Counted from the stretch's first letter, positions 1 through 30,453 are shown. The stretch: 36,127 nt of DNA from Thermoplasmata archaeon (GCA_030040865.1 JASHSX010000013.1:1-36127), one strand, 5' to 3'. The notes: generated by a model not told the origin, from the letters alone. Program-made: numbers and translations.

Positions 1-3000
1 GGCCCGTCGACCGGGACGCCCTTCAGGTGGATGCGGAAGATGTCGCGCCGCGCGGCGAGGTCCGGCGGAGGCACGTAGAAGATCTTGTCGAAGCGGCCCG
101 GCCGGAGCAGCGCGGGGTCGAGGGTCATCGGCCGGTTGGTCGTCGCGATGATCATGACCTTGTCCTTCGGCCGCAGCCCGTCCATCTCCGTCAGGAACTG
201 GCTGACCGCGCGCGAGACCTCGGGCGTGCGCATCGACTCCTTGCCCGCGAGGGCATCGATCTCGTCGAAGAACACGATGGACGGGGCGTTCTCGCGCGCC
301 CGGTAGAGGACGTCGCGCACCGCGGCCTCGGACTGGCCGGCGAGCGCGCTCACGAGCTCGGGGCCGTTCACGATCTGCATCGGCACGTTGAGCTCGTTCG
401 CGGCGGCCCGCATGATGTGCGTCTTCCCGCAGCCGGGCGGGCCGAACAGGAGGATCGCGCGGCCGGTCTTGATGCGGTAGCTCTCCATGAGGTCCGGCTG
501 GGTCAGCGGGAGCTCCACGTACTCCCGGATCGCCTGCTTCGTCTCCTCGAGCCCGCCGACATCGTCCCAGCCGACCACGACCTTGCGCTCGGTCCGGACC
601 GACTGGTGCATCTTCCGCTCGTAGTCGAGCTTCATCGTCTCGTACTCCGCGATCATGCGGAGCGAGATCGACGGCTTGACGCGCGGCAGCACGGTCAGGA
701 AGTCGGCCATGGTGATCGGGGTGGTCGCGCCGCCCTCGTTGCCGCTCTCGATCTGGCGCCGGACGGCGACCGTCGCGGCCTCGCGGACGATGTTCGCGAG
801 GTCGGCGCCGCTGAACCGCTCCGTGCGCTTCGCGAGCTCCTTGAGGTCGATGTCCTTCGAGACCGGCCGGCCCGCGAGGTGCACCTGGAGGATCTCGGCG
901 CGCTCGACGATGTCGGGGGGCGGGACGTAGATGATCTTGTCGAGGCGGCCCGGCCGCATCAGCGCCGGGTCGATCAGGTCGGGCTTGTTGGTGGACCCGA
1001 CCACGATCACTCCCGACGACTTGTCGAGACCGTCCATCTCGGAGAGCAGGATCGAGAGGAGGCGCGGCGTCACGTCGTCCGCCGTGTACATGTCGCGGCG
1101 CTTGGCGATCGAGTCGATCTCGTCGAGGAAGAGGATCGTGGGCGCCCGCTCGCGGGCCGTCCTCAGCATCTCGGCGACCCGATTCTCGCTCTCCCCGTAC
1201 CACTTGCTCATCAGGTCGGAACACTTCGCGCTGATCATCTCGACGCCGAGCTCGCTCGCGAGCGCCTTCATCAGCATCGTCTTGCCGCACCCGGGGGGAC
1301 CGAACAGCAGGATCCCCTTGGGCGGGTCGAGCTTGAAGCGGGTCGTGACGTCCTTGCGCATGAGCGGGATGATCATCGACTCCTTGATGTCCGCCTTGAC
1401 ATCGTGAAGGCCGCCGACCATCTCGAACGTCACCTTGTTGCTCTGCAGGCCCTTCATCTCGGCCACGCGCGTGCCGACGGACGAGGCGCCCATGCGGCTC
1501 GTGAAGTACGACTCGAAGGCGTCCCGAATCACGAGCGAACCCGCGACGGCCGTGAACATCGCCGGGATGAACAGCAGCACGACCAGCGCCGTCCAGTTCG
1601 TGTAGCCCTGCAGCACGAAGGCGACGAGCGTGACGCCGGCCACGGTGCCGCCGCCGATCACCGACACCGAGGTCACGCGGTCGCTCGTCTGGAACGTGCG
1701 GTCCTTGAGCAGCGTCACCGCCAGCCAGCAGGCGAAGCACCAAGCGCCGATCTCGATGAGCGGGAGCGCGAGGCCCCCGAGCCCGCTGCTCCCCGCTCCG
1801 AACGAAGAGAAGTCGGGGCTGACGACGTTCGCCCACGCCGAGCCGATGCTCGTGAACGAGAAGTACGGGATCGGCAGGGTCGGGAGGAACGCCGCGGAAT
1901 GCCCGGCGATGAGGCTCGGTCGACCGGAGCCGCTGGGCCCGACCAAGTACCCCAGGACCGGGAGATTCCCCAACGTGACGAACAGCGAGATGAGGATCCC
2001 GCCGGCGACGGCGATCGCGATCCCGAGGTACAGCGAGAAGACCAAAGCGACGATGACGGGGACGACGAACGAGATCCCGATCGGCGCCAGGAAGAGCGCC
2101 AGAAAGACCCCGACGCCGAACTTGAAGTCCATCATCGCGGCGAAGAGGATCGGCAGGGCCGCGAGGAGGAAGACGAGACCCATCGCGCCCGACTGGTACC
2201 CGACCTCGGGCACGACCAGGAGCACCAGCGCGAGCAGCGAGAGCTGCGGGAACCGCCAGGCGATCAGCATCACCGCCGGGGTGATGATGAAGATCACGTA
2301 GGGCCACGGGTAGAACGGCTCGAAGAAACCCCCGAAGAGCGCGAGCGCGCCCATGACCCCGATCTCGAGAGGCTTCGGATCCTTCGTCTGAGCCCGGATC
2401 CACTTCTCGATCCGTCGCGACCAGAGGATCGCGCCGACGATGCAGAGCGCTCCCAGCGCCGTCAGGAAGTAGAAGAGGTCGTCATAGAGCGGCGCCGGAT
2501 ACGCCTGGATGTACTGGGGCCCGATCGCCACCGCGCTCGGCCCGCTCGCCCCGGTCGCGATCGCGTTGTTCGTCGCGTCGGCCTGGGCGTCGAGCGTGAG
2601 GTACGTCTGGCCGGCGTACGGCCCGCCCGGCAACTTCTGCTGGACCACCGTGAAAGTGAGCACCGCCACGTGCCCCGCCGTGATCCAGGTGGGATCGCCC
2701 TGGATGGTGGCGAAGAGGTTCGCCGCGAGCGTCGAGTACTGCGTACGTTGGGCGGGCGCGAGCGACGCGATCGACGCGAACGTGAGGCTCGTCGTACCTG
2801 TGGTCGCACTGTACTGGACCTGGCTCACCGTGTCCTTGATCACGACGGTGTCCCCGGCGGCGAGCCCGCCGGAGGTGAGGTAGACCACCGAGAGCGCGTT
2901 CGAGGTCGTCATCTTGGCGCCCGAGCTCGTCAGGAACTGCTCGGCGGTCTGGGCGTGGACCACGTCCGGATAGAACGTCCCGATGAGGGCGACCCCGGTC

Positions 3001-3335
3001 CCGGCGAGGATGATCCCCGCGAGGAAGAGCGCCCAGAACATCCGCCGTCCCGCCTCGCCCTTCTTGGGGATACGGGACGTGGGGGGACGCCGCGGGGCCG
3101 CGGCCGGTCGGGCCGGGGCCTTCGCGACCGGCTTCGCAGCCGCCGGCGTGACGGCCGCTCCCGGAGCCGCGGCCGGGGCCGTCGACGCCGCGCCGGCGGC
3201 GGTCGGCGCGCCGGACGTGGCCGACGGGACGGACCCCGAGGGCGCGGAGGTTCCGGCCGTCGACGGACCCGTCGAGGGCTGCGGCCCCGAATCGTTCGGT
3301 AGGGAGGTGCTCTGGGTCTTCGCTGCTTCGCTCAT
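1..3335 (-). CDS. Membrane-embedded tandem AAA+ ATPase (Cdc48/p97-clade modules). Ala/Pro/Ser-rich N-terminus, one TM plus a ~170-aa external domain, roughly 10 more TM segments, then two AAA domains. 3' end lies outside the window.
   Basis: Translated by hand from ATG 3335-3333 (MSEAAKTQST...), open to base 1 (1111 codons). AAA1: VTFEMVGGL, GILLFGPPGCGKT (~1278-1315), ILFLDEIDS, STNKPDLIDPALMRPGRLDK. AAA2: VGWDDVGGL, AILLFGPPGCGKT (~420-460), IVFFDEIDA, TTNRPMTLDPALLRPGRFDK. Long hydrophobic tract ~1530-2480. Confidence 0.95.
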   Translation of the reverse strand, partial: MSEAAKTQSTSLPNDSGPQPSTGPSTAGTSAPSGSVPSATSGAPTAAGAASTAPAAAPGAAVTPAAAKPVAKAPARPAAAPRRPPTSRIPKKGEAGRRMFWALFLAGIILAGTGVALIGTFYPDVVHAQTAEQFLTSSGAKMTTSNALSVVYLTSGGLAAGDTVVIKDTVSQVQYSATTGTTSLTFASIASLAPAQRTQYSTLAANLFATIQGDPTWITAGHVAVLTFTVVQQKLPGGPYAGQTYLTLDAQADATNNAIATGASGPSAVAIGPQYIQAYPAPLYDDLFYFLTALGALCIVGAILWSRRIEKWIRAQTKDPKPLEIGVMGALALFGGFFEPFYPWPYVIFIITPAVMLIAWRFPQLSLLALVLLVVPEVGYQSGAMGLVFLLAALPILFAAMMDFKFGVGVFLALFLAPIGISFVVPVIVALVFSLYLGIAIAVAGGILISLFVTLGNLPVLGYLVGPSGSGRPSLIAGHSAAFLPTLPIPYFSFTSIGSAWANVVSPDFSSFGAGSSGLGGLALPLIEIGAWCFACWLAVTLLKDRTFQTSDRVTSVSVIGGGTVAGVTLVAFVLQGYTNWTALVVLLFIPAMFTAVAGSLVIRDAFESYFTSRMGASSVGTRVAEMKGLQSNKVTFEMVGGLHDVKADIKESMIIPLMRKDVTTRFKLDPPKGILLFGPPGCGKTMLMKALASELGVEMISAKCSDLMSKWYGESENRVAEMLRTARERAPTILFLDEIDSIAKRRDMYTADDVTPRLLSILLSEMDGLDKSSGVIVVGSTNKPDLIDPALMRPGRLDKIIYVPPPDIVERAEILQVHLAGRPVSKDIDLKELAKRTERFSGADLANIVREAATVAVRRQIESGNEGGATTPITMADFLTVLPRVKPSISLRMIAEYETMKLDYERKMHQSVRTERKVVVGWDDVGGLEETKQAIREYVELPLTQPDLMESYRIKTGRAILLFGPPGCGKTHIMRAAANELNVPMQIVNGPELVSALAGQSEAAVRDVLYRARENAPSIVFFDEIDALAGKESMRTPEVSRAVSQFLTEMDGLRPKDKVMIIATTNRPMTLDPALLRPGRFDKIFYVPPPDLAARRDIFRIHLKGVPVDG

Positions 3336-3369: not shown

Positions 3370-5190
3370 TTACCCGAGCGTCACCCTCCGTTGTTCGGCC
3401 TGGGCCTTCGCCCGTCGTTCCCGGAACCACAACACGATCGCCGGCGCCGCCACGGCGACCGCCACGAGCCCCCCGACCTCACCGGCCTGGAGGCCCGGGA
3501 CGGCCGACCAGACGTTCGAGGGAAGGGCCGACGACGCGACGTCGAACACCAGCACGGTCGGTCCGGCGCTCGACACGACGATCGCGCCGGACGGGTCGTT
3601 GCCGTAGGCCGAGATCGTCACCGAGTAGGCCCCGTAGGCGAGCGGGAACGGAGCGCTTCCCCCGCCGGGCGAGACGACCGTCGCGAACCCGAGCGGGGTC
3701 CCGACGGCGGTCTCCGACCAGCTGCCGTTCTGGATGGTGAAGTGGAGCGACGGCAGGAGCTGACCGGTCGAGAGGTCGACCGCCTCGATGAACACGAGGC
3801 CGTAGCCGGGCAGGGGCGACGTCGCCGGGCCCCCCGACTCCGAGTACGAATAGTTCCCCGAGCTGACCGCCGTTCCGAAGATGTCCTTCGCGACCACGGA
3901 GAAGGTGATCGCCCCGCCCGACGGAAGGCCCGGCAGGACCGAGTAGGAGGTGTTGGCGTCGGCCGCCGTCATGGGGAGGAGGCCCGAGAGCGTCCCGACC
4001 GCGTCGTGGTAGACGAACGCGACCGCCGCCGAGGCGATCGTCACGTTCGGGAGCGGGGAGTGGACCGTCACGTTGACGGGATCGTTCGTGGGGAGCGTCG
4101 CCGTGCCCGTGAGCACGTTCGGGCTCGCCGACAGCACGAGGTTCGCATCGAGCCCGCGCGTCGGATACCACCAGCCGCCTTGGGACGTCCAGTTGATCGC
4201 GTAGTCGCTGCTCCAGATCGGGTCGACCTCCCCGCCCGACCACAGCGACCAGGCGACGATCCGGAAGTGGAGGGTATCTCCGGCGTACGGCCCGATGGGC
4301 GCCGTCAGATTGACCACCGTCCGGTTCGACGGCGTGAAGTACTGGTTGAACGGACCGCCGGGCGTGGACCCGGTCAGGTTGAAGAACACCTCGGCGGCTC
4401 CGATCGGCGGTGGAGTGCCGCCCCCGGCTCCGATCGAGGTCAGGGTGATGTCGAGCGCCTGGTGGGCGTTCGGATCGTAGAGCGTGCCCGAGCCGATCGC
4501 CGACGGCGTGGTGCTGACGTCGATATCGTCGCCGAAGGTCGGCGTCGGCCAGGTCGACGCGACCGTGAACATCCAGGTCCAGTTGTCGACGATCCCACCG
4601 TAGTTGTACGGATTCGAGTAGGCGTTCGCGGAGCGGAGGGAGTTCGGGATCCCGACGCTCGAGTTCACCGTGACGTTGAAGTACACTTCGCTGCCGGGCC
4701 AGAAGTAGCGGAACGTGTTCAGGAAGAACGAAGCCTCGTTCGGCTGCGAGGGGGAGACGTACATGGGGAACAGGGCCGGGGTGACCGGCGAGAATCCCGA
4801 GACGGGCACCGTCTGGTTCCCCGCCGTGGGCCAGCCGGTCGCCCACAGCGCGATGTTCGCGTCCAGGATCGGTACGGTCGTCGAGAAGTTGAGCCAGATC
4901 CCCGGCGAGTCGCTCGGCAGCGTGTTCGAGCACGGCGCGATCTGGAAGGCGGAGTCGGAGAGGGCGGGATCCCCGACGACCGTGATCTGGGGCTGAAGGC
5001 TGACGAAGAAGTTCGAGGAATCCCAGGTCCCTCCGTTGGTCGGCGTGGGACACGAGGGGGCGGCTCCCGGGCTCACGGTAGCGCGCGGCCCCGCGGTCGT
5101 CGCGGACGCGCCGCCGACCGCGAGCCCCCCGAGGACCGGGATCGCGACCAGGGTCGCCACGAGCACGACCCACGCGAAACGGCCCGTCAC
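3370..5190 (-). CDS. Exported, C-terminally membrane-anchored beta-rich protein of unknown function (606 aa); paralogue of the upstream gene
   Basis: Part of track ORF 3370..5670. The GTG at 5190 overlaps the upstream TGA (GTGA) and opens a signal-peptide-like stretch (VTGRFAWVVLVATLVAIPVLGGLAVGGASA). S/T/N/P-rich body with many N-x-S/T sequons. Ends with a TM helix plus WFRERRAKAQAEQRRVTLG. Confidence 0.88.
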   Translation of the reverse strand: MTGRFAWVVLVATLVAIPVLGGLAVGGASATTAGPRATVSPGAAPSCPTPTNGGTWDSSNFFVSLQPQITVVGDPALSDSAFQIAPCSNTLPSDSPGIWLNFSTTVPILDANIALWATGWPTAGNQTVPVSGFSPVTPALFPMYVSPSQPNEASFFLNTFRYFWPGSEVYFNVTVNSSVGIPNSLRSANAYSNPYNYGGIVDNWTWMFTVASTWPTPTFGDDIDVSTTPSAIGSGTLYDPNAHQALDITLTSIGAGGGTPPPIGAAEVFFNLTGSTPGGPFNQYFTPSNRTVVNLTAPIGPYAGDTLHFRIVAWSLWSGGEVDPIWSSDYAINWTSQGGWWYPTRGLDANLVLSASPNVLTGTATLPTNDPVNVTVHSPLPNVTIASAAVAFVYHDAVGTLSGLLPMTAADANTSYSVLPGLPSGGAITFSVVAKDIFGTAVSSGNYSYSESGGPATSPLPGYGLVFIEAVDLSTGQLLPSLHFTIQNGSWSETAVGTPLGFATVVSPGGGSAPFPLAYGAYSVTISAYGNDPSGAIVVSSAGPTVLVFDVASSALPSNVWSAVPGLQAGEVGGLVAVAVAAPAIVLWFRERRAKAQAEQRRVTLG

Positions 5191-7217
5191 AGCGTCACCC
5201 GCTTCTCCTCGGCCTGCCGGCGAGACCGCACGCGCCGCCACCACGCGTACACGGGGATCGCCATCAGGCCGCCCGCGATGAGCCCGACGAGCCCCGCGAT
5301 CCCGAGCGCCCCGGTCGACGTGGTCGCCGGGGGGGCGGCCACGAGACCCGGTGGCGTGGCGTTGAGATAGAAGAGGAACGCGTTCCCTTCCTGGACCACC
5401 CAGTAGTCGCCGCCCACCTCGAGCGGTCCCCGGTTCGTGGGCACGTGCGGGATCGAGACGATGAGGCTGACGTTGCCGCCGGAGAGTCCCCCCGCGGGGA
5501 CCCAGAACGGATCGAGCACGGAGATCCGATACGTGGAGTTCGCCGGAACGATCGCGGGCGTCAGGACCTCGCCGCTCACGTTCGGGTAGGCGACGCCGTA
5601 GCTCGTCGGCGTCTCGATGTTGACCCCGTCCGAGAGGCCCGTGATCTGGACGTGGGCGCCCGAGACCCACGACTGCGTTCCGTTGTCGAAGACGTACACG
5701 TAGAAGAACGTCGCATTCCCGGGGAGGACCGGGACCAGCTCAGAAAACGTCGGGACCGAGAACGAATAGACGGACGAGACGTCCTCGTGCTGGACGAAAT
5801 CCCACGCTTCGACCGAGAAGGAGACCTGCGAACCGATCGGGAACGGCGGGATGACGCCGTTGAACACGGTCGATCGCTCGCGGACGAGGGGGAGGATCGT
5901 CGTCGCGGTCTCTCCGAGCGCCGGGTAGGAGAAGGCGATCGACAGCTGCGCGGCGAGGATCGAGGTCCCGGGGGCGATGCTCGTGAGCGTTACGGGGACG
6001 GCGACGCCCGGTGCGACCGTGGCGTTGGAGGAGGTGAGCACGGAGCCCGGCGCGACGGCCAGCGCGAGATCGTCCTGGAACACTCCGGTGCTGAAGCTCC
6101 CGTTCCCGCCGACGGTGTACGACTGCGGGGCGGTCGCGATGCGATCGTCGTAGGTGTCGTAGACGACGAACTGGTAGTCGACGGTCGCTCCCTGGATCTG
6201 CGCCCAGCTCGCCGGGAGGGTGATCGAGGTGACCGATTCGCCCGGAGCCCCGAGCGTCGAGCTCACCACCGACGAGCCGGGGAAGGTGAGGGTCTGCGCC
6301 TGGAGGACCGAGCCGTTCGGGGTGTACTCCTCCACGATCCAGTACGCGCGACCGATCGTGGCGTTGACGGGAGGCCCGTCGGCCGCGGTCGTGTTGAGCG
6401 TCGCGGTCACTGAGTCGTTCCAGTTCGGCGCCTGCGGGACGATGGAGACCCCGACGTCCTGGCTCGCCGCGCCGGACCCCGCGTACTGGCTCGAGCCCGG
6501 GTACGGCGAGTACGCCCAGGCCCCGGCGTAGGTGAACTGGAACGTGGGGCTCGTCCAATGGGTGAGGACCGATCCGTTGTACGTGTCGAACGCGATCCAC
6601 CAGGTCACGTGCATCCCCGCGTAGAAGTTGGGGGCCGAGCCGATCGCTTCCTGGGCCGTGAACTCGAGGTTGTACCAGTAGGGGTACGAGGCGTTCGCCA
6701 CCGGGTTCGCGGCGGGCCACCACCAGTGGCCGGACTTCGTCGTGTTGTCGGCGTGCCATACGTTGCCGGAGTAGACGCTGTAGTACGGGTTGCCGTTCCA
6801 GGAGACGGCGGTCACGTTGAGCTGCATGACCGAGTTGGGACCCGCCCACGGGCCCATCGTGCTGTAGTCGAGCTTCGTGTGCGACTTCACGTACAGATTG
6901 ATGTTGATCGTGGGGTTCGGCTGCGACGTGGCCACGTAGCTACCGGTCGGAGGGAGGATGTTCGGCTGGGAGGCGTTCGCCATCGAGACGCAGATCCCCG
7001 AGGCGATCGCGTAGCACGGCGGATTGTATCCGGACGACGGCGCGATCGCCGCACCCGGGTCGCTGTCCGACGCCGGGCGGGACGCGGCGCCGACCGGAGA
7101 GGAGGGGCCGGCGCCGAGGACGTACGCCGTGGCGATCAGCGTCGCGACCGCCGCAAGCACGGCGAGCCGTCCGGCGAGAGCCGAGCGACGTCCGCTGCGA
7201 TGCCGGATGCTACCCAC
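5187..7217 (-). CDS. Exported, C-terminally membrane-anchored beta-rich protein of unknown function (676 aa)
   Basis: Part of track ORF 5187..7676. GTG at 7217 has GGAGG ~10 nt upstream, then a basic plus hydrophobic leader (RRSALAGRLAVLAAVATLIATAYVLGA). Ends with a TM helix plus WWRRVRSRRQAEEKRVTL. Confidence 0.88.
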   Translation of the reverse strand: MGSIRHRSGRRSALAGRLAVLAAVATLIATAYVLGAGPSSPVGAASRPASDSDPGAAIAPSSGYNPPCYAIASGICVSMANASQPNILPPTGSYVATSQPNPTININLYVKSHTKLDYSTMGPWAGPNSVMQLNVTAVSWNGNPYYSVYSGNVWHADNTTKSGHWWWPAANPVANASYPYWYNLEFTAQEAIGSAPNFYAGMHVTWWIAFDTYNGSVLTHWTSPTFQFTYAGAWAYSPYPGSSQYAGSGAASQDVGVSIVPQAPNWNDSVTATLNTTAADGPPVNATIGRAYWIVEEYTPNGSVLQAQTLTFPGSSVVSSTLGAPGESVTSITLPASWAQIQGATVDYQFVVYDTYDDRIATAPQSYTVGGNGSFSTGVFQDDLALAVAPGSVLTSSNATVAPGVAVPVTLTSIAPGTSILAAQLSIAFSYPALGETATTILPLVRERSTVFNGVIPPFPIGSQVSFSVEAWDFVQHEDVSSVYSFSVPTFSELVPVLPGNATFFYVYVFDNGTQSWVSGAHVQITGLSDGVNIETPTSYGVAYPNVSGEVLTPAIVPANSTYRISVLDPFWVPAGGLSGGNVSLIVSIPHVPTNRGPLEVGGDYWVVQEGNAFLFYLNATPPGLVAAPPATTSTGALGIAGLVGLIAGGLMAIPVYAWWRRVRSRRQAEEKRVTL

Positions 7218-7297: not shown

Positions 7298-9451
7298 TCA
7301 CTCGAACCGCCCGAGCGACGGCCCCTCGACGGCCGCCTTCTCGAACTTCGATTGCATGGGACCCGCCTTCATGGCCATCTGGAGCGCGATCGGCCGATTG
7401 CGCATCATGACGCGGACGAACCCGGCCCCGAGGAAGCCGGCCGCCGTCGCCTGGAGCGAGACGTTGGCCGCGCCGACGTTCTGACCGATCCCGATCTGCT
7501 GGATCACGGGGACCGGGGCAGGCGCCGCGATCGGCAGGGCGGGTACGCCTCCCGGTGGGGGCGGCGCTCCCCCGCCCCCGGCCACGCCGGTCGGCAGACC
7601 TTGGACGTCCACGGACGCGAGCGGGAACGACTGGGTCACGACCGTGGTGTTCGTGTACGGAAGATAGTTCGCCCACGTGTAGAGGCCGTCGACCGCCGCG
7701 CTCCCGCCGACCGTGCAGAAGACAGTCGTGCAGGCGTCGACCGGGACCGTGCCGAGCGGCGGGCCGGTCGACTCGACGTTGAACGAGGCCGTCCAGGTAT
7801 CCCCGAGCTCGATCGAGTTATTGTTCGGGAACTTCGACCAGTTCCACGCGAGATAGACGAGGCTGCCCTGCTGGTGGAGCTCGCCCGGCGCGCACGCCAG
7901 GAACAGCTCGCCGTTGCGGTCGCAGGTCGTCACCAGGTCCAGGCTCGCGCCGGGCGCGAGGGCGATGTTCCCGAACGGCACGAACGTGAAGATCGGCAGA
8001 CCGGCCACCCCCTGCGCCAGGACCGTGTTCACCACGGGGCCGAATCCGATGTGGTCGATCGCATTGAGTAACCACGGATTGTTCAGATTCGGATTGTCGA
8101 GCGGTCCGTGGGGCACGAACTGGAGATTCCCCTGTTGACCGTCGGGGCACGCGAACCACGCCGGTCCGTCCCAGGAGCCTCCCGTGGCGGCGGCCATCTC
8201 GCAGCCGGCGAGCAGCACACGCTCCACGTTCTCCTGGATGATCAGCTGCGCCGTCGAGCCACCGCCGTCCGGCTCGTGGTTGGGCCACCAGCCGGGAGAC
8301 GTGGGGTCCGTCGGCGTGGTCCACAGATCGATCACGTCGATCGTGCACGTTCCCCCGATGGCGTTCGTGCACATCGGCGAGGTCCGAGCGAGCGCGGCGA
8401 TCGAGTCGTTCGGGTTGCCGTCCTGGCTCGTGATCCAGCCCTCGCAGTTCGGGCTCACCTCGCCGGAACCGAACGCGTACGACGGCTCGCAGGTCGGCGA
8501 CTGGCAGGCGGGGCTGAACAGGCTCGCCTCGGTCTGAGAGCCGCAGTAGGAGTAGCTGGCCCCGTAGTTCTCCGAGAAGCCGGGCGCCCTCGGCGCCGAG
8601 GAGGTCATGAGCACGATCACGTGGTGGGTGTTCGGGGACCAGTCGAGCCCGAACCCCTGGATCGTTCCGTACAGCTCGGTGATCATGTCGCTGTGGAGGA
8701 AGTTGTCGGCCATCCCCGAGTCGCAGTACGTCCAGCCGTTGTCGCAGGCGAAGAGGTTCGCCTTCACCTGGAGCGCGACCTGGCCGAAGTCCTGCACCGG
8801 CACGAAATCGGGAGTATCCACGTGGAAGGCCGGATCGTCCCCGTCGTCGATGTAGTCGTGGGTCGCGAACCCGTCGATGAGCGCGAACGAGACCGTGGTG
8901 TGGGGGTTCTCCGCCTGGATAGCGTTGGCGACCCGTTGAGCGTTGTACATCAGGAACTGCGGCCCGTTCGCCTCCTCGCACATCCCGTCGCTCGAGCTGC
9001 TCGTGTCGCAGATGTCGGGCCCGCACCCGCTGTAGCATCCTGCCCCGTCGTAGTTCGTCGTCTCCAGGATGAACGCGACCTGGACGGCCGGCCACGAGTC
9101 GGCGACCGGCGTCGGCGTGGCGGAGACCGTGACCCGGCTCTCCCCGGTGCCGGCGGCGCAGCTGGCGACGCCGTAGACGCAGATGCTTCCCGGGGCGGCC
9201 GAGATGCCGAGGTCCAGGTCGCCCGAACTGTTGACGGCGGGTGTGACCGACGGGCTCGAGGCCGGTGAGACCCCCGCCGATCCGGACGACGAACCCGCGT
9301 TCACGACGAGAGCGTTCGACTCTCCCATCGCCCCGACGCACAGCAGGGCGAAGATCCACCCGATCCCCAGGGCGAGGGCGATGCGACGCCCCCGGCTCCC
9401 CGGCGGTCGGATCCATCGGTCTCTCGGGCCCGGGCGCTGTGCCGACCTCAT
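7298..9451 (-). CDS. Exported Cys-rich protein with a degenerate von Willebrand factor A-like domain, Pro-rich linker and atypical C-terminal tail (717 aa)
   Basis: Part of track ORF 7298..11683. ATG 9451 overlaps the upstream TGA (ATGA). Leader RRIALALGIGWIFALLCVGAM. vWA-like strands VQVAFILETT, TVSFALID and WSPNTHHVIVLMTSSAP. About 20 Cys after the leader. The CDS is secure; the vWA call is by resemblance only. Confidence 0.8.
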   Translation of the reverse strand: MRSAQRPGPRDRWIRPPGSRGRRIALALGIGWIFALLCVGAMGESNALVVNAGSSSGSAGVSPASSPSVTPAVNSSGDLDLGISAAPGSICVYGVASCAAGTGESRVTVSATPTPVADSWPAVQVAFILETTNYDGAGCYSGCGPDICDTSSSSDGMCEEANGPQFLMYNAQRVANAIQAENPHTTVSFALIDGFATHDYIDDGDDPAFHVDTPDFVPVQDFGQVALQVKANLFACDNGWTYCDSGMADNFLHSDMITELYGTIQGFGLDWSPNTHHVIVLMTSSAPRAPGFSENYGASYSYCGSQTEASLFSPACQSPTCEPSYAFGSGEVSPNCEGWITSQDGNPNDSIAALARTSPMCTNAIGGTCTIDVIDLWTTPTDPTSPGWWPNHEPDGGGSTAQLIIQENVERVLLAGCEMAAATGGSWDGPAWFACPDGQQGNLQFVPHGPLDNPNLNNPWLLNAIDHIGFGPVVNTVLAQGVAGLPIFTFVPFGNIALAPGASLDLVTTCDRNGELFLACAPGELHQQGSLVYLAWNWSKFPNNNSIELGDTWTASFNVESTGPPLGTVPVDACTTVFCTVGGSAAVDGLYTWANYLPYTNTTVVTQSFPLASVDVQGLPTGVAGGGGAPPPPGGVPALPIAAPAPVPVIQQIGIGQNVGAANVSLQATAAGFLGAGFVRVMMRNRPIALQMAMKAGPMQSKFEKAAVEGPSLGRFE

Positions 9452-12400
9452 CTTTCTTCTCCCCCTTCGTCCGTCGCCGGGCGGGCCTCGCGGGCCGGAC
9501 GGGTCCGGCGACCGCGCAGGCGCAGCCCAAGGATCGTCGCTCCGACACCCCCGATCGCGGCCGCGGTCACGATCAGGAGCTCCCATCCGCCCAGGGAGAT
9601 AGCGCTCCCCGACGACGGGCTCGTGCCCGGCATCCCTCCGAGCGCGAGGACGACCGAGCCCGTGGACCCGGTGGCGTCCACGCCCTGGCGGAGCGTGACG
9701 TAGCCGAGCGCCGACGCATCGAACGTGTACTGTCCCTCGGGAAGCACGATCCGGAACGTCCCGTTGGCGCTCGAGACGAACGACAGCTGGACGGAGTGGC
9801 CGTCGACGGCGACTCCCTGCACGGTGACCTGGGCCCCGACGATCGGGAGCCCGCTGGTCTGGTCCGCGACGAGCCCGTAGATCGCGGTCTGCGGAGGGAG
9901 AAGGTCGATCGGCAGCGATTGCGCCGCCCCGTCGATCTGGATCGGGAAGGTGACCGGGGCGTACGGAACGGTCGAGCTGGGCGCGGGGACGGCGCGGATC
10001 GACCAGCTCCCGTTCGGCAGTTCGGTCGAGAAGGAACCGTCCGCTGCGCTGGTGGCGAGCGGAACCCAGGTGCCGTTCGCTGCCACGAGTCCGATCGATA
10101 CGTTCGCGAGCCCGGCGCCCGTGTAGCCGTCGGCGACGATACCGCTCACGTCGTAGGTCTGGACCGACAGCAGCAGGTCCCCGAGCGAGGTCGGGGACGA
10201 GACCTCCATCGGTTCCGCGAGCACGGCGAATCCCGGAAGGAAGATCGACAGCACGTACTCCCCCACCGAAGCGGAGAGCTGGAACGAGCCGCTCGCCCCG
10301 GTCTCGGTCGAGAAGGCCGGCGTGCCGTTCACCAGGAGCGCGACGACGGCGCCCCCGAGCGGCGACCCGCCGACGCCGAACGGACCGGAGGCGGTCTCGA
10401 CCCGACCGGAGACCGTGTACGCCACATCCTGGCCGAGCGGCACGAGATCGATCGGGGCGGGCAACGTGACAACGGCTCCCGACAGGACGCCCACGGTCCC
10501 GAAGTCCGTGGCGTACCCAGGAGCGGAGACGATCAGCTGGGAGGCTCCCGCCGGGCCCTGCACCGCGAAAGCACCGGAGGCGTCCGAGAGGCTCTGGGGC
10601 GCGCAGGACGCGCCCGTGGCCGTTCCGCAGAGGAGCACCTGGGCCCCGACCACCGGGTCGCGAGTGGCAGAGTTGACGACCGAACCCTCCACGGTACCGA
10701 ACTCGTTGAGGAAAATAGTCCCGAGATCGAGGCTCTCGCCGGGGGTCAGCACGATTCCGAGCGAGGCGGGCGAGAAGCCCGCGGCGCTGACGTCCATGGT
10801 GTACGTGCCCGGAGGTTCGACGTCGACGATGCGTCCCGCCGAGTCGCTCAACGAGGGCGCGAAGCACGCCCCGGCCGCTGCACAGACCTGGACCTGGGCA
10901 CCGACGATCGGGTAGCCCGCGGGCAACCCGAGCACGAGACCGGAGAACGAGGCGAAGGCGTCCAGGTGGATCGCTCCGGCCAGGTGTTGCCAGCAGTCCG
11001 AACAGAGCTTGAGCTCGGTACCGTTCGAGTCGAAATCGGTCGCGGAGACGTTCACGAACACCGTTCCCGGCGCGGCCGCGACCCAGAAGTCCCCGCTGAT
11101 GTTCGACTCGGCCGACGGACAGATCGTCTCCCCCGGCGAGCACGCGACCACGAGCGCCCCCGAGATCGGCGCGTTCGAGGGGTAACCGATGACCTGCCCG
11201 GCGATCACGCCGTCCCCGGTCAGGTTGACACTGGTCACGTTGGTGAACGCCCCGGGATGCACGTTCAGCGCCAGCACCACGCTCTCGTAGGCGGGGTGGC
11301 TCACTGTGAGGAGATCGTCCTCGCCGGCGGGGGCGTTCTCGAGGAATTGTCCCTCTTCGTTGGTCGGCTGAGGATTCAGGCTCGCCGAGGTGCCGCCCGA
11401 GTTGGTGACGTCGATCTCCGCATTCGGGAGCGGCTGGTGGTTCGCCGCATCCTTCACGCTCGCGAGCACCGGGGTCGAGGAGGAGTTGACCTGGGAGCTC
11501 GCGGTGTAGCCGAACGACTGCAGGACGATCGCGCCGAGGTGGATCCCCGACCCCCCGGCGGCGAACGTGGTCCGGCTCGGGGAGACGTTCAGGTAGAAGG
11601 TGGTGGAATTGAACGGCCCCTCGGAGTCCGCGCTCACCAGCAGCTCGACGTGGTCTCCCGGGGGAGCGGTCGTATTGACCCACCCGTTCTGGTTCCCGAT
11701 GCCCGACGACGCCTCGTAGCTCCCGGAGGTCGCCAGCACCGAGGAGAACACGCCCGGCGTCGGGACCGGCGCTCCGTTCGAGGAGACGACCCGGAACTCA
11801 ACGTATCCGTAGTGCTCGAGATACATGGTCGGCATGGCGATCGACTGACCGGGCTCCCCGGCCGAGCTGTTGTCGTAGTAGGCGGCGCCGCTCACGTAGG
11901 CGTTCGGCGTCGTCGCGAGCACCTGGATGAGGTGACTCCCGTCGTGGTCGGGGTCGCCCGTATAGGGCGACGCGAACAGCACGTAGTACCCCTGAGCGCT
12001 GGCCGGACCGCTCGCCGTGCCGCCCCGGGTGCCCGGTCCGCCGACCTGGATGCTCACGGGAGCGTAGCGGACGCCCTGCCCGTTGCCCATCGTCTGGTCC
12101 ATGACGTAGCCGCTGTACGACGAGAAGTCGCCCATCTGGAACGTGGCGATCGACTGTCCCGAGACGTTGACGCCCACGATCGTATAGCCGAAGACGAACC
12201 CACCGCCTCCCGTGTACGGTCCCCCCCCGAGCCCGATCGCGCTCACGTTCATCGGTCCGAGGCTCGGCGACTGGACACGATAGTACCCGGTCCCGTTGAG
12301 GTAGGTCGACTCGACGGGCTGTTGGGAGCAGACGAAGACGCCGGAGGCCGTGCATACGGTGACCTGCGCCGGCGGAGCGAGGTCGAAGTGCCCCACGGGG

Positions 12401-15330
12401 GTTGCGATGTCGAACCACGGGGTGGAGGTGACGTTGCCGGAGATCCACGGCAGCGGTTCCAAGGGCAGGACTCCCACGTCTACCGCCAACGCGACGGAGG
12501 CGTTGATGAACTCCGAGAACGGTTCGTAGCCGGGCACGGAGAGGTTCAGGTAGAAGAGGCCGGACGGGATTGACTGGTTGAAGAATCCTCCGGTGTTCGC
12601 CCCCGAGGAGAAACCGACCCCGCCGATCGCGCCGGGGCTCGTGAGCACGAACTCCGTCGCCTGCACCGCCACCCCCCACCCGGTGGAGGCGTCGACGACC
12701 CGCCCGGTGAGCCAAGCGCCCCCCGCGTTCGAAGCGGACGACGGCGCCGAAGCCGCACTCGCCGAAGCGTCCGAGGCGGTCGAATTCGCGTTCGCCCCGA
12801 CCGGCTGGAGGACGATCGGCGGAAGGACCGTCGTCTCGTTGGACGTCACGTTCGCCCAGGTCCAGTCGGTCGAGTAGCCGGACGCGGTGACCTCGATCTT
12901 GTACGTGGATCCGGGCAGCCAGCCTCCCGGGAGGAGTCCCAGGTACTGGCCCCCGGTCGAGACCCGGCCCGATCCGAGGATCGTCTCACACACCAGCTGG
13001 GCGGTGATCGGACACACGCTCGCGTGGGCGTCGAGGATCGGCTGTCCCTCCGGGTCGAGGACGAGACCGGTCAGCGTGCCGAGGGGCGTGAGAAAGATCG
13101 GTCCCACCGACGTCGTCCCCTCGCTCGAAACGTTCGCCCAGACCGTGTTGGGCGCATACCCCGATGCCGAGACGGTGATGTACCCCCACCCGGGGGGCCC
13201 CGGGACATCGAAGGTACCGTTGATCAGCGTCACGTTCGAGAAACAATTGAGCCCGTCCAGGGGGCAGATCTCCAGGGACGCGAACGGGACCGGCTCGGTG
13301 CCGCCCGCCTCCTCCACCAGTCCTGAGACCATCACCGAGCCGGTGAGATTGATCGATTGGACGTGTTCGTTGTTGGCGGTCGAGAGCGCCAGCGGGAACT
13401 GCTTCGTGTCGCAGCATAACGACTCGGTGCTGGCCCAGGTGGTGTTCGAAGCGGACTCGGCGCCGGACGCCTCGATCTGGACGGGTCCGGGGGGAGCCGG
13501 CACGCAGAACGCCGTCGCCGTGTCCACGTACGGGGAACAGTCGAACGCGCTCAGTTGGTCGACGTACGAATAGGAGACTCCCGGGGACACGGTGTAGCTC
13601 GTCGACGTGGCGGTGACGACGAACCCTCCGGGGGGCGCCTCGTTGGTACCTTGAAGGTAGACGTTGCCCGCGATGTACGTGCCGACGGGCATGGACGCGT
13701 TCACGTACGTCGTCTCGTACGGCGTCACATTGGCCCACGCCGTCGTCGGATAGACCGGGAGGTCCCCCGGTATCGGCCAGGTGGGATACGGCGGATCACA
13801 GAACGGTGTGTAGTCGGGCGTGATCAGGATGTAGTTCTGGAGCGGCAACGCGGCGAGCTCACCCGGCTCTCCGACCTGCTGGCACCCGCCCGAGATGCAG
13901 TTGGAGATGCTCGTGTTGATGACGACCTCGGTGTTCTGGATGACACCGGCCACGATCGTGCCGACCTTGTAGCCGTCCGCGCTGCAGACGCTTGCGCGCC
14001 AAAGTCCGGTGTGGAAGTCGTTCTCGAGCGACGTGACGTTCGCCTGGTCTTGCGGGTTCGAAGCGTCGTAGTCGAGACTGACGGTGAGCTGGACGGTACC
14101 CGGGGGAGTGAGGTAGAAGGCACCGAGGTTCACGACCTGGCCCGGATTCTCCTTGGCGACGAAACCGATCGACTGGGTGAGCTGGACGTATCCCTCCGCC
14201 TGGAGGATGATGTAGTCGTTGCCGGGAGGGCCGAAGGCGCTCAGTTCGCCGGTCTGGCTGGCGGCGCCCTGTTCGGCGCATTGGCCGCTGATCGAGCTGC
14301 ACACTTGGAGCGAGGCCCAGCTGCCCGAGATCAACTGCCGCGTGGCGGCGTCGTAGATGGAGGCCCGGAACGAGTCGTACGCCTCAAGGTAGATCGTGCC
14401 CAGATCCACCGAGGCCCCGGGCGTCGCATTCACCCAGGTGAAATTACCCTGAAAGGCGTAGAACGGCGACTGGAACTGGACCGTCGAGGGGACCGGCGGC
14501 ACCGCCGCGGTGAAGCTCCCGTTCTCCGTCGTCGTCCCGATCGGGGTGCCGACCTGCGTGTCGTTCAACGACGCCGAGGAGACGACCACCCCGGGGACCG
14601 GCTGAGGTATCGGAGTGTCGGTCATCACATAGCCGGTGATCGTCGCCTCGTGGACCAGGTAGGTCGTCCCGGAATAGGTCGTCGAATCGTTGGCGACCGT
14701 GGCGTACGACGTGTTGGACAGGTAGTAGTTCGCGGTGAAGACCAGGTAGTCGGTCCCCACCGGCGCGACCACGTTGAAATACCCGGTCGCGGAGGAGCTT
14801 CCGGCCACGCAGATCTGCGGGGAGCAGAGTTCCCCGCTGAGCGAGTACGCCTGCACGGCAATGCCGGAGAGTCCGAGGCGCTGCCCGATCGAGTTCGCGA
14901 CCGACGTGTTGACGAAGCCGCTGAGGCGCCCCGTGAGCTCGCTCTCGTCCTTCGTGAGGCGCGCGCTTGCCGCGGCCCGGGTCGCGTTCTCTTGGGCGGC
15001 TTCGGCCCGGAGCGCGCTCGTGACGGTCAGGTTGTGGAACTCCTCGGCCTGGGCGAGTTGCGGCGAGTTGCTGTAGACGCCCGTGGGATGCGCGCCGGGG
15101 AGCGCCGAGGAGGAGACCGGGGCACTCGGGACGGACGGGGCGGGCGCGAGCGGCGACACCGAACCGGCGCTGCCGGTCGAGGTCACGAACTCCCCGGACG
15201 GCACCGCGCTCAGCAGCATCGCCGCAGCGATCCCTACGATCGCGGCCACTTCGAACGCCATCGACCGCTCCCACCGAACCGAGGCGACCGTCCCACCCGA
15301 GGAAGAATTGTGGGAACGGAAGGCCCCCAT
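9448..15330 (-). CDS. Giant surface protein (1960 aa) of tandem carboxypeptidase-regulatory-like / prealbumin-fold repeats with a C-terminal TM anchor
   Basis: Track ORF 9448..15336; ATG at 15330 preferred over TTG. N-terminal hydrophobic segment. Recurrent ~85-95 aa unit GxxxGxV...PxxGAxV...G.F...V[S/T]AxGY...LGxIxL. Ends LLIVTAAAIGGVGATILGLRLRGRR. Confidence 0.92.
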   Translation of the reverse strand: MGAFRSHNSSSGGTVASVRWERSMAFEVAAIVGIAAAMLLSAVPSGEFVTSTGSAGSVSPLAPAPSVPSAPVSSSALPGAHPTGVYSNSPQLAQAEEFHNLTVTSALRAEAAQENATRAAASARLTKDESELTGRLSGFVNTSVANSIGQRLGLSGIAVQAYSLSGELCSPQICVAGSSSATGYFNVVAPVGTDYLVFTANYYLSNTSYATVANDSTTYSGTTYLVHEATITGYVMTDTPIPQPVPGVVVSSASLNDTQVGTPIGTTTENGSFTAAVPPVPSTVQFQSPFYAFQGNFTWVNATPGASVDLGTIYLEAYDSFRASIYDAATRQLISGSWASLQVCSSISGQCAEQGAASQTGELSAFGPPGNDYIILQAEGYVQLTQSIGFVAKENPGQVVNLGAFYLTPPGTVQLTVSLDYDASNPQDQANVTSLENDFHTGLWRASVCSADGYKVGTIVAGVIQNTEVVINTSISNCISGGCQQVGEPGELAALPLQNYILITPDYTPFCDPPYPTWPIPGDLPVYPTTAWANVTPYETTYVNASMPVGTYIAGNVYLQGTNEAPPGGFVVTATSTSYTVSPGVSYSYVDQLSAFDCSPYVDTATAFCVPAPPGPVQIEASGAESASNTTWASTESLCCDTKQFPLALSTANNEHVQSINLTGSVMVSGLVEEAGGTEPVPFASLEICPLDGLNCFSNVTLINGTFDVPGPPGWGYITVSASGYAPNTVWANVSSEGTTSVGPIFLTPLGTLTGLVLDPEGQPILDAHASVCPITAQLVCETILGSGRVSTGGQYLGLLPGGWLPGSTYKIEVTASGYSTDWTWANVTSNETTVLPPIVLQPVGANANSTASDASASAASAPSSASNAGGAWLTGRVVDASTGWGVAVQATEFVLTSPGAIGGVGFSSGANTGGFFNQSIPSGLFYLNLSVPGYEPFSEFINASVALAVDVGVLPLEPLPWISGNVTSTPWFDIATPVGHFDLAPPAQVTVCTASGVFVCSQQPVESTYLNGTGYYRVQSPSLGPMNVSAIGLGGGPYTGGGGFVFGYTIVGVNVSGQSIATFQMGDFSSYSGYVMDQTMGNGQGVRYAPVSIQVGGPGTRGGTASGPASAQGYYVLFASPYTGDPDHDGSHLIQVLATTPNAYVSGAAYYDNSSAGEPGQSIAMPTMYLEHYGYVEFRVVSSNGAPVPTPGVFSSVLATSGSYEASSGIGNQNGWVNTTAPPGDHVELLVSADSEGPFNSTTFYLNVSPSRTTFAAGGSGIHLGAIVLQSFGYTASSQVNSSSTPVLASVKDAANHQPLPNAEIDVTNSGGTSASLNPQPTNEEGQFLENAPAGEDDLLTVSHPAYESVVLALNVHPGAFTNVTSVNLTGDGVIAGQVIGYPSNAPISGALVVACSPGETICPSAESNISGDFWVAAAPGTVFVNVSATDFDSNGTELKLCSDCWQHLAGAIHLDAFASFSGLVLGLPAGYPIVGAQVQVCAAAGACFAPSLSDSAGRIVDVEPPGTYTMDVSAAGFSPASLGIVLTPGESLDLGTIFLNEFGTVEGSVVNSATRDPVVGAQVLLCGTATGASCAPQSLSDASGAFAVQGPAGASQLIVSAPGYATDFGTVGVLSGAVVTLPAPIDLVPLGQDVAYTVSGRVETASGPFGVGGSPLGGAVVALLVNGTPAFSTETGASGSFQLSASVGEYVLSIFLPGFAVLAEPMEVSSPTSLGDLLLSVQTYDVSGIVADGYTGAGLANVSIGLVAANGTWVPLATSAADGSFSTELPNGSWSIRAVPAPSSTVPYAPVTFPIQIDGAAQSLPIDLLPPQTAIYGLVADQTSGLPIVGAQVTVQGVAVDGHSVQLSFVSSANGTFRIVLPEGQYTFDASALGYVTLRQGVDATGSTGSVVLALGGMPGTSPSSGSAISLGGWELLIVTAAAIGGVGATILGLRLRGRRTRPAREARPATDEGGEER

Positions 15331-15426
15331 GGTCAACAGCGGGCGCTTCGACCACTCGGGTCCCCGCGTGGCGGGTGGACACCCCGATGAGGCCAGACGG
15401 GCATCCTCGGTTCCACACTGCGATGG

Positions 15427-18900: not shown

Positions 18901-18936
18901 TCGGTCGCCACGCGAGCGTCGGGCTGATGGTACCAT
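15910..18936 (-). CDS. YVTN/YncE-type beta-propeller surface protein: 14 blades, three Thermoplasmata-type Ig-like repeats, C-terminal TM
   Basis: 14 counted repeats of Pxx[L/I]AYD...E[I/V]FV[A/T]NxxSxxVSVI. Three VxFxESGLxxGxxWSVT units. Signal-like N-terminus, and a TM helix plus basic Pro-rich tail. Confidence 0.93.
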   Translation of the reverse strand: MVPSARRSRGDRRGSSRSRTCGSVPTLVAALVLAIVFLVSGSVSSLVGALPVSPLRSGGSVPTIDAAPESSHPGPVTGRAAATPLGGPVGLEAPYVANTLVLSNGTDIPGNFSSPNGITPYFAAYDPDTGVVVVGDQYSNALSEISDTTDAVVAQIPTGQHPLGLAFDPVQNEWFVGADWSNEIQVIRAASGQVVAALPTPDQSGCPALLYDSGQGEVFVADDDAGEVTIISATTNAILANIPLGAGSTPFALAYDPQLGEVFVTDWGTNLVSVINDTDFQVVQTIPVGDQPYGIGYDPTLQEIFVANSGSSSVWAIDAQTYAVVAKIAVGSAPTGLAYDSGESEIFVTNIGSDNVTVVSATTDKSVASVVAGNDAFGIVYVSGRSQVWIVSRATGFVSVISDTTDRVVANISLWAKPAGIAFDAGTHQLFVSDEAAGVVDVVSDASNAIVARVAVGSLPVGVVYDAGQHEIFVANSGSDTVSVINDASDTVTANIAVDDSPLALGYDPQLGEVFVGGNSSASVAVINDTRNVVVGGGIAAEEFPVGLAVDTSDQEVLTADDTTNQISVLDAATGSPGPYVDVGLSPDAVAVMPGLQEAFVANNGSNTVSVLSTVDDTVLSTAKVGAGPAAATAVPNKDEVVVADYLSGSITALNASSGGTFATLSVGAGPNAAAYDPDTGALYVANSVNGTVSILQFRSNETYDVDFNESGLPGGTSWSVTVNDSRSASTGSSVAFSELNGSYDYTIGTVSGYRPSPAAAGFSVTGSRVSILVDFVRVTATEYPVVFQESGLQPGVAWSVTLNGTSNQSTSSSVLWDLPNGTYLYVVAPISGYGCDPSSGSLTVQGGAIAENISFKLIEYYVTFVESGLPPGANWSVTLAGVSHDSSTSSVLFVEPEGDFSYAVQGPSGFVGLPVSGTVTVSDQSLSEAVSFTTSSSGSGTSQPWLGPSALLAYAGFGVLVAVIVIALVLRNRSRSAPRGPPPRRSPASGDPTGPKTAPPSQDTEPP

Positions 18937-30415: not shown

Positions 30416-30453
30416 GGGCCCCACTTGTCAAACCGACCATGTAAGGACTCCCG

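Follow-up and report, generated by a model that had tools for sequence, protein, structure and literature searches.

Why should two neighbouring surface proteins of an archaeon, only distantly alike along their bodies, finish in almost the same short peptide on what appears to be the inner side of the membrane? The question is raised by a 36,127-nucleotide stretch of DNA (hereafter the window; contig C194 of assembly G000) from an uncultured soil archaeon of the Thermoplasmata, whose assembly comprises 1.75 Mb in 205 contigs, is roughly 80% complete, has a G+C content of about 69% and is Arg-rich. Two adjacent genes of the window, B and A, encode surface proteins with a single C-terminal transmembrane (TM) helix, and the next gene encodes AAA-1, a membrane-embedded ATPase with two AAA domains. 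Homologous proteins are labelled "Thermoplasmata archaeon" or "Candidatus Lutacidiplasmatales archaeon" by their sources. Our findings show that the shared ending belongs to a longer, fixed-length module of TM helix plus tail, which is restricted to one protein family and keeps company with the ATPase, and the answer that we tentatively prefer is that the tail serves as a docking element for this motor.

The shared C-terminal module

The open reading frame (ORF) that stops at 5187 with TGA finishes AIPVYAWWRRVRSRRQAEEKRVTL, and the one that stops at 3370 with TAA finishes AIVLWFRERRAKAQAEQRRVTLG, exactly as the first-pass annotation had read them. It was also right that the tails are much more alike than the bodies: 10 of 18 tail residues are identical, and seven of the last nine, against 26% identity between the proteins over 293 columns (BLASTP, E=6e-6), an alignment by which A and B are distant tandem paralogues. 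When the C-termini of the 14,167 other six-frame ORFs of the same genome were scored in the same way, the best reached 7/18 and 5/9, and the ending R[VIL]T[LIVM]G?$ occurs in three of the 14,169 ORFs of the whole assembly, namely A, B and an 88-residue ORF that we judge spurious. The other anchored proteins of the window (the giant repeat protein, the beta-propeller protein and the thermopsin) carry unrelated basic or low-complexity tails, again as first described.

A and B share a common layout: behind an N-terminal signal anchor comes the ectodomain, then a single C-terminal TM helix, and a short basic-acidic tail closes the chain. The signal anchor, the N-X-S/T sequons (14 in A and 17 in B) and a basic cluster just past the TM helix suggest, at the level of sequence, that the tail is cytoplasmic. 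No family was found for A, B or U (the gene 5' of B) in Pfam, searched up to E=10, or in NCBIfam. An AlphaFold 2 (AF2) model of B (predicted local distance difference test, pLDDT, 84.2) has an all-beta ectodomain, built as a string of beta-sandwich domains, and renders TM segment and tail as one continuous, single helix (residues 638-675). With this model Foldseek retrieved generic macroglobulin/Ig-like arrays only (TM-score about 0.15), and an atlas search with B gave only weak leads to beta-sandwich proteins (0.79).

How long is the shared element? The first-pass annotation had delimited a tag of eight residues, QAE[E/Q][K/R]RVTL, of which the conserved end stands and the size does not. A pool of 189 sequences yielded 177 unique C-termini; 164 of these end R[VI][TS][LV]-COOH, four more add a Gly, and nine differ, six of them being near variants (e.g. 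KVTL, KLTL, RITI). The 168 motif-bearing C-termini were stacked without gaps and anchored at the C-terminus, leaving out P0157, P0162, P0164, P0167 and P0168, which have no motif, the truncated P0098 and a frameshifted A from locus L030. Because these 168 hold register over 32 residues, the conserved unit is a fixed-length module of about that size, TM helix plus tail, and not an eight-residue tag. Counted from the C-terminus, its ungapped consensus reads G-32, P-22, W-18, E-7, R-4, [VI]-3, [TS]-2 and [LV]-COOH. Conservation across the stack is 91% for G-32, 84% for P-22, 88% for W-18, 92% for E-7, 100% for R-4, 92% for T-2 and 96% for L-1, with position -2 being Thr or Ser in 100% of rows. 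The TM helix has one conserved face, formed by G-32, P-22, L-21 and W-18.

The same ending recurs in each of the two families. Among database homologues of B, 66 of 69 end [KR][KR][VI][TS][LV], the exceptions being P0005 (EKVIR), P0006 (KRVTQ) and P0051 (QRVTL); among those of A, 22 of 29 do so, five end RRVTLG, one ends RRVAGT and one is truncated. The trailing Gly of the window's A is a genuine trait of a subclade, the five proteins P0070-P0074. The first sample of the genus yielded B orthologues in 12 of 36 genomes, and a second family in two of four; across 13 wider loci, all 27 intact A/B C-termini have the tail and 26 stop exactly after [LV], the window's A alone adding Gly. Within a 63-row alignment of B (A2; the six omitted rows are P0005, P0017, P0035, P0063, P0067 and P0068), the last 11 residues rank second of 666 windows of that length, and the majority fraction is 0.85 in the tail, 0.585 in the ectodomain and 0.50 in the TM helix. 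As a side observation, P0006 is the only B protein ending KRVTQ and P0075 the only A protein ending RRVAGT, and the longest contig given for each measures 14,975 bases, so that they may derive from one organism in which both tails diverged together. No contig encoding both was recovered in metagenome scans.

Could the likeness reside in the nucleic acid and not in the peptide? The tails lie just 5' of the next gene's start, and the stop of B overlaps the start of A, a position that would suit a DNA- or RNA-level signal, while recent gene conversion between tandem genes would be another route to similar ends. Both are contradicted by the codons. Within one genome A and B differ in codon at 47 of the 82 residues that they share; five different codons, of both the AGR and the CGN type, stand for the invariant Arg, and both TCG and AGC for Ser-2. 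Nucleotide identity between the A and B tails is just 13-22 of 33 positions in 11 same-genus genomes, and 27-28 of 33 in two loci of family f2. Differing codons at identical residues therefore exclude both readings for practical purposes, and we regard them as extremely improbable. Strong selection on the tail, which the first-pass annotation had supposed to be specifically selected, is thus seen at the peptide level, in these codons and in the rank of the last 11 residues of B. The Leu codon CTA, taken to be rare in this G+C-rich genome, ends six B orthologues and one A orthologue (loci L020, L021, L024-L027 and L030).

The distribution of the module is narrow. A 45-position profile of TM helix plus tail (alignment A1; strong matches defined by E below 1e-9) gave strong matches in 65 of the 186 genomes of the order, weaker matches covering the hydrophobic part only. 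The genomes checked have two strong matches about 1.9 kb apart, save incomplete or contig-broken assemblies, and the tail is patchy within the genus (48 of 150 genomes). When 401 genomes were drawn evenly from the phylum, the profile matched only the window's family, with two matches each in six of nine genomes and in G000, and none of the 391 genomes that belong to other families. Run against 1.84 billion representative proteins, it gave 77 matches at E up to 1e-3. Sixty-five of these could be judged by a body match, and all 65 have A/B-type bodies, so that the tail is retained even by some proteins whose bodies share just 27-31% identity; another ten do not have the length for judgement, and the two long ones without an A/B body are also without the motif. 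Since all long matches with a body match are of A/B type, the module marks a family. A portable form of the sorting tag suggested at first is ruled out by these family-only matches in the phylum sample and in the protein collection.

The adjacent AAA ATPase

AAA-1 is organized, from the N-terminus, as a disordered stretch, TM1, an ectodomain of ~170 residues, about nine more TM segments (an estimate, counted by eye on the sequence and on the helices of the structure model) and two ATPase domains, D1 and D2. The protein is incomplete, with 1111 residues present, because the contig ends inside D2; the open frames of its orthologues measure about 1208-1240 codons from stop to stop and end YGTRG. 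Pfam AAA is matched in two stretches (E=1.1e-84), Walker A and B motifs occur in both ATPase domains, and the NCBIfam CDC48 model (TIGR01243) scores 493 bits, under its cut-off of 802. For the D1 model, p97 and VAT come up at Z 27-29 (38-45% identity), alongside Vps4, FtsH, Pex1/6 and Msp1/ATAD1 (Z 19-29 overall; 19-25 for FtsH, Msp1 and ATAD1). The pore loop of D1, K-W-Y-G-E-S-E, shows no variation in any of the 14 aligned sequences, some of them distant, and the D2 loop ALAGQSE varies in distant relatives; in p97 the aromatic pore loop is arranged the other way round between D1 and D2. The N-terminal 640 residues have no Pfam match up to E=10, a MIT domain included, and no NCBIfam match, and are read, from sequence and model, as a polytopic membrane domain. 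A model of residues 285-905 (pLDDT 69.5, from a 14-row alignment) renders about 35-40 residues between the last TM segment and D1 at pLDDT below 50, and a wide structure search with it (VIA) was filled by AAA-domain matches. Neither Pfam nor NCBIfam detects a protease domain in AAA-1, the cluster core contains no protease gene, and the AAA is the only member of the cluster with a folded cytoplasmic domain. A homology between A/B and the N-terminal TM-ectodomain-TM module of the AAA itself was considered and rejected (hhalign probability 0.9%). The assembly has a second membrane-AAA copy (G000:C126:19174-21489, minus strand), 74.6% identical to AAA-1 over 668 residues and truncated where the contig stops; after it come a small gene for a protein with two TM segments and three surface proteins (frames of 1284-1585 codons) without the RVTL tail. 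This copy could be a paralogue or come from a co-binned relative.

The order U-B-A followed directly by the AAA is found in nine of 11 same-genus loci; the remaining two have a contig that stops after A, and an AAA at the edge of another contig. For co-occurrence across the order the AAA was probed by its ectodomain, chosen as specific, which is present in 61 of the 186 genomes. Tail and AAA ectodomain occur together in 60 genomes, the tail alone in five, the AAA alone in one and neither in 120; these counts include two unpublished genomes (G019, G189), without which both occur in 58 of 184. Three of the five tail-only cases are assemblies 56-64% complete, and two are family-f2 genomes unmatched by the probe, of which G037 has an AAA directly after A and G042 a contig that ends after A; in the AAA-only genome (G110) the gene starts at a contig edge. 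Read from the match tables, tail and AAA share a contig in 51 of the 60 genomes and are on different contigs in nine, and in at least five of these nine the AAA match begins within about 170 bases of a contig end. The co-occurrence that the first-pass annotation put forward as a check is borne out, the profile being restricted to genomes of this order and 60 of the 65 tail genomes also having the N-terminal ectodomain of the AAA; the AAA as reader of the tail, which it supposed, is an inference from linkage. Kinship makes such genomes dependent on one another, and for this reason no statistical test is given. Separately, cluster genes are broken in three assemblies of few contigs (L030 in G025:C23, L023 in G010:C2, and G194:C2): in G025, A is frameshifted before the tail, B is split and the AAA is in pieces; in G010 the AAA lies in three frames; and in G194 the tail-bearing frames measure just 197-216 residues. 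This could reflect decay or indel errors of assembly.

Relatives outside the order bear on what A and B do. Of 401 genomes sampled from the class, 71, in at least nine families, have the membrane domain of the AAA, and 13 such loci (L035, L036, L051-L061) were examined with a hidden Markov model (HMM) of the A/B body, the last 50 residues removed. In five of them (L035, L051, L052, L054 and L057) this HMM matches the N-terminal ectodomain of the AAA itself, at E 1e-27 to 1e-40. The fused ORFs measure 1377-1386 residues in L035, L051 and L052, which belong to one genus, and about 1300 residues in L054 and L057, from another family; a search of the class returned 14 open frames of 1289-1387 residues in two families, of which five were inspected. 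Each of the five is a single ORF in which an A/B-type ectodomain, together with its TM helix, is joined to the membrane AAA; in L035 (8559-12692) this TM helix is followed by a cytoplasmic linker of ~45 residues, which continues into the AAA membrane domain at its first helix. The linker thus occupies the topological position that the free tail holds in the split forms. Elsewhere the HMM matches separate genes directly upstream of the AAA (L036, L053 with two, L055, L056, L058 with two, and L060); L061 has a further match in an adjoining frame, and L059 is cut by the contig end. Fusion in two families, a classical Rosetta-stone argument, indicates that ectodomains of the A/B type are working parts of the AAA machine.

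Might the tail instead be read by some unlinked cytoplasmic factor, e.g. a PDZ-type binder of C-terminal peptides or a protease? The ending V/I-x-L/V-COOH, present in 164 of the 177 unique C-termini, that of B included, has the hydrophobic-x-hydrophobic-COOH form that we take to be a class II PDZ ligand, and the genome encodes two PDZ-domain proteins (G000:C152:5009-6073 and G000:C41:797-2734, minus strand), by their motifs presumably one HtrA-like serine protease (GNSGGP) and one M61-like metallopeptidase (HEYFH). Yet PDZ proteins are present in 14 of 14 control genomes, whereas the tail is patchy; their co-occurrence therefore carries no information, and no specific link is drawn. In addition, the window's A and four relatives end TLG, which would block carboxylate-dependent binding, and both the fusions and the linkage favour the AAA. 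We thus consider an unlinked reader very unlikely.

Docking or threading as possible mechanisms

The reading that we prefer, if only tentatively, is that the tail docks onto the AAA as an element of fixed length. In this view A and B would be paralogous extracellular subunits of a conserved cell-surface machine of Thermoplasmata, and the adjacent Cdc48-like double-AAA ATPase with its polytopic membrane domain would be the motor. The 32-residue module would act as one rigid unit, a TM helix with a conserved face followed by a charged helix of 18 residues, and the charged helix would be a spacer of fixed length that presents E-7 and R-[VI]-[TS]-[LV]-COOH to a cytoplasmic site on the AAA. The presence of the same module on very different A and B ectodomains would point to equivalent sites on a motor presumed to be homo-hexameric; the AAA as binding partner and the stability of the dock are likewise presumed. 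Docking is favoured because the length of the module is fixed and the face of its helix conserved, because two paralogues with divergent ectodomains share it, as would fit the equivalent sites of a homo-oligomer, and because sister lineages fuse the ectodomain to the AAA. Fixed length is what one expects of a docking ruler and not of a flexible degron. The conservation of the peptide, its linkage to the AAA, its restriction to one family and the folded cytoplasmic domain, which in the cluster only the AAA has, speak for the same reading.

Several observations weigh against docking. Operon linkage speaks of shared function, not of contact, and the co-occurrence counts overstate the number of independent events, kin sharing ancestry. 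In genus g193, two loci (L053 and L058) have four or two tandem anchored proteins 5' of the AAA, and the two nearest the AAA match the A/B-body HMM at E 1e-91 to 1e-98; yet the tails of these split partners differ from one another and from RVTL (WKLY..TEEGKQERSLVK; ...GLAEGG/GLALEG). Partners without RVTL imply that this tail is not required for partnership in general. Furthermore, the Gly that follows Leu in the window's A implies that the terminal carboxylate is not strictly read. Finally, the invariant aromatic pore loop of D1 fits the threading of polypeptides, and the tails are the most conserved cytoplasmic peptides of the cluster. Within g193 itself, one paralogue tail, W-K-L-Y-x-[IL]-T-E-E-G-K-Q-E-R-S-L-V-K, is common to both genomes and spans 18 residues from the Trp.

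The last of these points leads to a different mechanism, in which the D1 pore would take in the tail as a handle, the AAA gripping the free C-terminus of A and B and pulling on it, either for membrane extraction and turnover or to transmit force that resets the ectodomains. D1, with its KWYGESE loop, is the membrane-proximal ring; the ~35-40-residue segment of low confidence between TM helices and D1 would allow a tail to extend as far as the pore; the position of the tail is C-terminal and apparently cytoplasmic; a one-residue extension by Gly is tolerated; and the co-occurrence evidence is the same as for docking. Against this, a degron would need neither a fixed, ungapped length of 32 residues nor a conserved TM face, and the cluster has neither a protease domain nor a protease gene. 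By the HbYX rule a proteasomal ATPase has a penultimate Tyr, which is absent from the YGTRG end of AAA-1 orthologues. The ectodomain of a fused lineage cannot be threaded from a free C-terminus, and with 14-17 sequons the ectodomains are likely glycoproteins and hence hard to extract. Fixed length, the lack of a linked protease and the fusions in other lineages are also the reasons why the degron-like role raised in the first-pass annotation is not favoured, and we hold threading to be unlikely. A predicted complex of monomeric AAA-1 (residues 285-905) with the 45-residue TM helix and tail of B (score 0.01, mark 0.32) leaves the choice where it was, as a monomer cannot show a pore site.

A more speculative version, to which we give little credence, would have the charged helix as a rigid connecting rod, held at its last residues by the D1 ring and passing ATP-driven motion through the TM helices to the ectodomains, or would see in the cluster a Cdc48-based system that handles surface proteins in a layout like that of endoplasmic-reticulum-associated degradation. 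The connecting-rod reading, if true, would make the cluster an archaeal machine for mechanical work across the membrane.

The gene row and known counterparts

The genes form a tightly packed row on the minus strand, in the order giant CarboxypepD_reg-repeat protein, U, B, A and AAA-1, the last running off the contig (table 1). The GTG start of A shares the sequence CTGTGA (window 5187-5192) with the last sense codon and stop of B, and in L026 A begins at the last base of the final codon of B, an overlap of the ATGA type; B and A thus appear to be translationally coupled. The start codon of the AAA lies 34 nucleotides past the stop of A. The giant gene upstream of U is also found in L020, L026, L027 and L029.

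Table 1. Positions of the cluster genes, their motifs and neighbouring features (window coordinates unless a locus or contig is named)
Feature	Position	Strand	Remarks
Gene B	5187..7217	minus	Predicted type I surface glycoprotein, 676 aa from GTG start; cluster P0001
B TM+tail module	5190..5285	minus	Last 32 codons; 18-aa tail WWRRVRSRRQAEEKRVTL at 5190-5243
Gene A	3370..5190	minus	B paralogue, GTG start, 606 aa; cluster P0070
A TM+tail module	3373..3471	minus	Last 33 codons; tail WFRERRAKAQAEQRRVTLG at 3373-3429, including the one-residue Gly extension
AAA-1, membrane-embedded double-AAA ATPase	3..3335	minus	Pfam AAA, two stretches
AAA-1 D1 pore-loop-1, SKWYGESE	1185..1208	minus	Residues 710-717; membrane-proximal ring
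AAA-1 D2 loop, ALAGQSE	about 327-350	minus	No aromatic residue
Gene U	7298..9502	minus	Cys-rich anchored protein, 5' of B; start codon uncertain
Giant CarboxypepD_reg-repeat surface protein	9448..15336	minus	Cluster head; Pfam PF13620, E=1.3e-57; TM helix
Beta-propeller protein	15910-18936		Anchored; tail unrelated to A/B
Thermopsin	27212-30424		Anchored; tail unrelated to A/B
2-TM protein copies	L020:16581-16931; L029:16802-17185; G000:C126:18767-19048

Two further proteins of the cluster invite another explanation, namely that the module serves assembly among A, B, U or a small 2-TM protein, or that the charged helix lies along the lipid head-groups, the AAA not being involved. U is syntenic in 11 of 11 same-genus loci and has a conserved C-terminus of its own, G[RK][FW]E in ten of them and GHME in L024, and a protein with two TM segments and a conserved cytoplasmic end follows the AAA in relatives. 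The conserved TM face (G, P-L, W) suggests helix-helix packing, and translational coupling of B and A fits a heteromer. However, the modules of A and B are near-identical and not complementary, the fusions of ectodomain and TM helix indicate the membrane domain of the AAA as the packing partner, and the residues at the extreme C-terminus are the most conserved, which is unusual for a lipid-facing helix. We therefore judge accessory packing of this kind to be distinctly unlikely, and docking onto the AAA stays our preferred reading.

A hydrophobic patch, AGF.G.G, precedes the G[RK][FW]E end of U (window 7298-7435, minus strand); the atlas gives for U only a lead to vWA-domain proteins (score 0.86), and U-like proteins of 430-480 residues lie 5' of the AAA in distant loci (E 2e-7 to 8e-3 with an HMM of U that omitted L021, L022, L023 and L029). 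The 2-TM protein, of about 100-125 residues, is encoded immediately after the AAA in nine related loci and in C126; the two translated copies have a cytoplasmic C-terminal motif like F[EQ][IV]YRP.EDD, and it is probably a further component of the cluster.

How does the proposed system compare with those already described? In full-text searches of the literature, supplements aside, we found no membrane-embedded Cdc48-like ATPase with tail-bearing surface partners (among the papers covered, PMC5070193 and PMC6393860). The new contributions are the definition of the 32-residue module, the global test of its specificity, its order-wide co-occurrence with the AAA, and the evidence from codons and from fusions. 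That short C-terminal peptides couple partners or substrates to AAA+ rings is a known principle, as in the HbYX, ssrA and MIT-interacting motif (MIM) cases. In proteasomal ATPases (PAN, Rpt and archaeal Cdc48), HbYX tails dock onto equivalent sites of a ring-shaped partner. The module resembles them as a short, strictly C-terminal peptide at a fixed position, yet R-[VI]-[TS]-[LV] has no penultimate Tyr, it stands after a TM helix on the non-ATPase partner, and there is no 20S-type partner. In the ssrA/ClpX, FtsH and Msp1/ATAD1 systems it is the pore of the AAA ring that engages the tail. With FtsH and Msp1/ATAD1 the present case shares a cytoplasmic C-terminal tail beside the membrane and the fold of D1, and with ssrA-type degrons the extreme C-terminal position (in the same 164 of 177 C-termini), the cytoplasmic location being presumed here. 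Unlike in these systems, the tail is genetically built in, of fixed length and limited to two dedicated operon partners, there is no linked protease, and sister lineages fuse the ectodomain to the motor.

A membrane AAA accompanied by a paralogous pair of single-pass proteins is also known from FtsH with HflK/HflC and from the m-AAA protease with prohibitin 1/2. The likeness extends to the large extracytoplasmic domains of the pair; however, A and B have no SPFH domain detectable with Pfam and are anchored at the C-terminus, and AAA-1 differs from FtsH and the m-AAA protease in having two ATPase rings, no protease domain and an estimated ten or so TM segments per chain. With Cdc48, VAT and p97 it shares tandem classical AAA domains, but it has a polytopic membrane domain in place of the double-psi-barrel N-domain that takes substrates or adaptors, and its aromatic loop in D1, not D2. 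The three-part C-terminus of A and B (a conserved start of the TM helix, the helix itself and a basic cytoplasmic end) recalls the PGF-CTERM and PEP-CTERM signals of archaeosortases and exosortases, in which a motif before the TM helix is followed by the helix and a short Arg-rich end, on many unrelated cargoes; like those signals, it was picked out by co-occurrence with a polytopic membrane protein. It differs in having no PGF or PEP signature, the module reading G-L...P-L..W-W with an 18-residue tail that includes an acidic block and closes on the conserved R[VI][TS][LV], and in being limited to one protein family, with one pair per genome among the matches checked. Likewise, Vps4 recognizes the MIM1 helices of ESCRT-III through its MIT domain, and here too a charged C-terminal helix, carried by dedicated proteins, stands beside a classical AAA ATPase that is presumed to recognize it; AAA-1 has no Pfam-detectable MIT domain, however, and the tail has no Leu-rich MIM consensus.

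What sets the present case apart is a peptide placed after a TM helix, on proteins that are probably extracellular glycoproteins, with a membrane-built Cdc48-like double ring as its candidate reader. The tail thus offers a concrete and cheap entry into an uncharacterised but widespread envelope system of Thermoplasmata, one that may inform how motors of the Cdc48 type came to membrane work.

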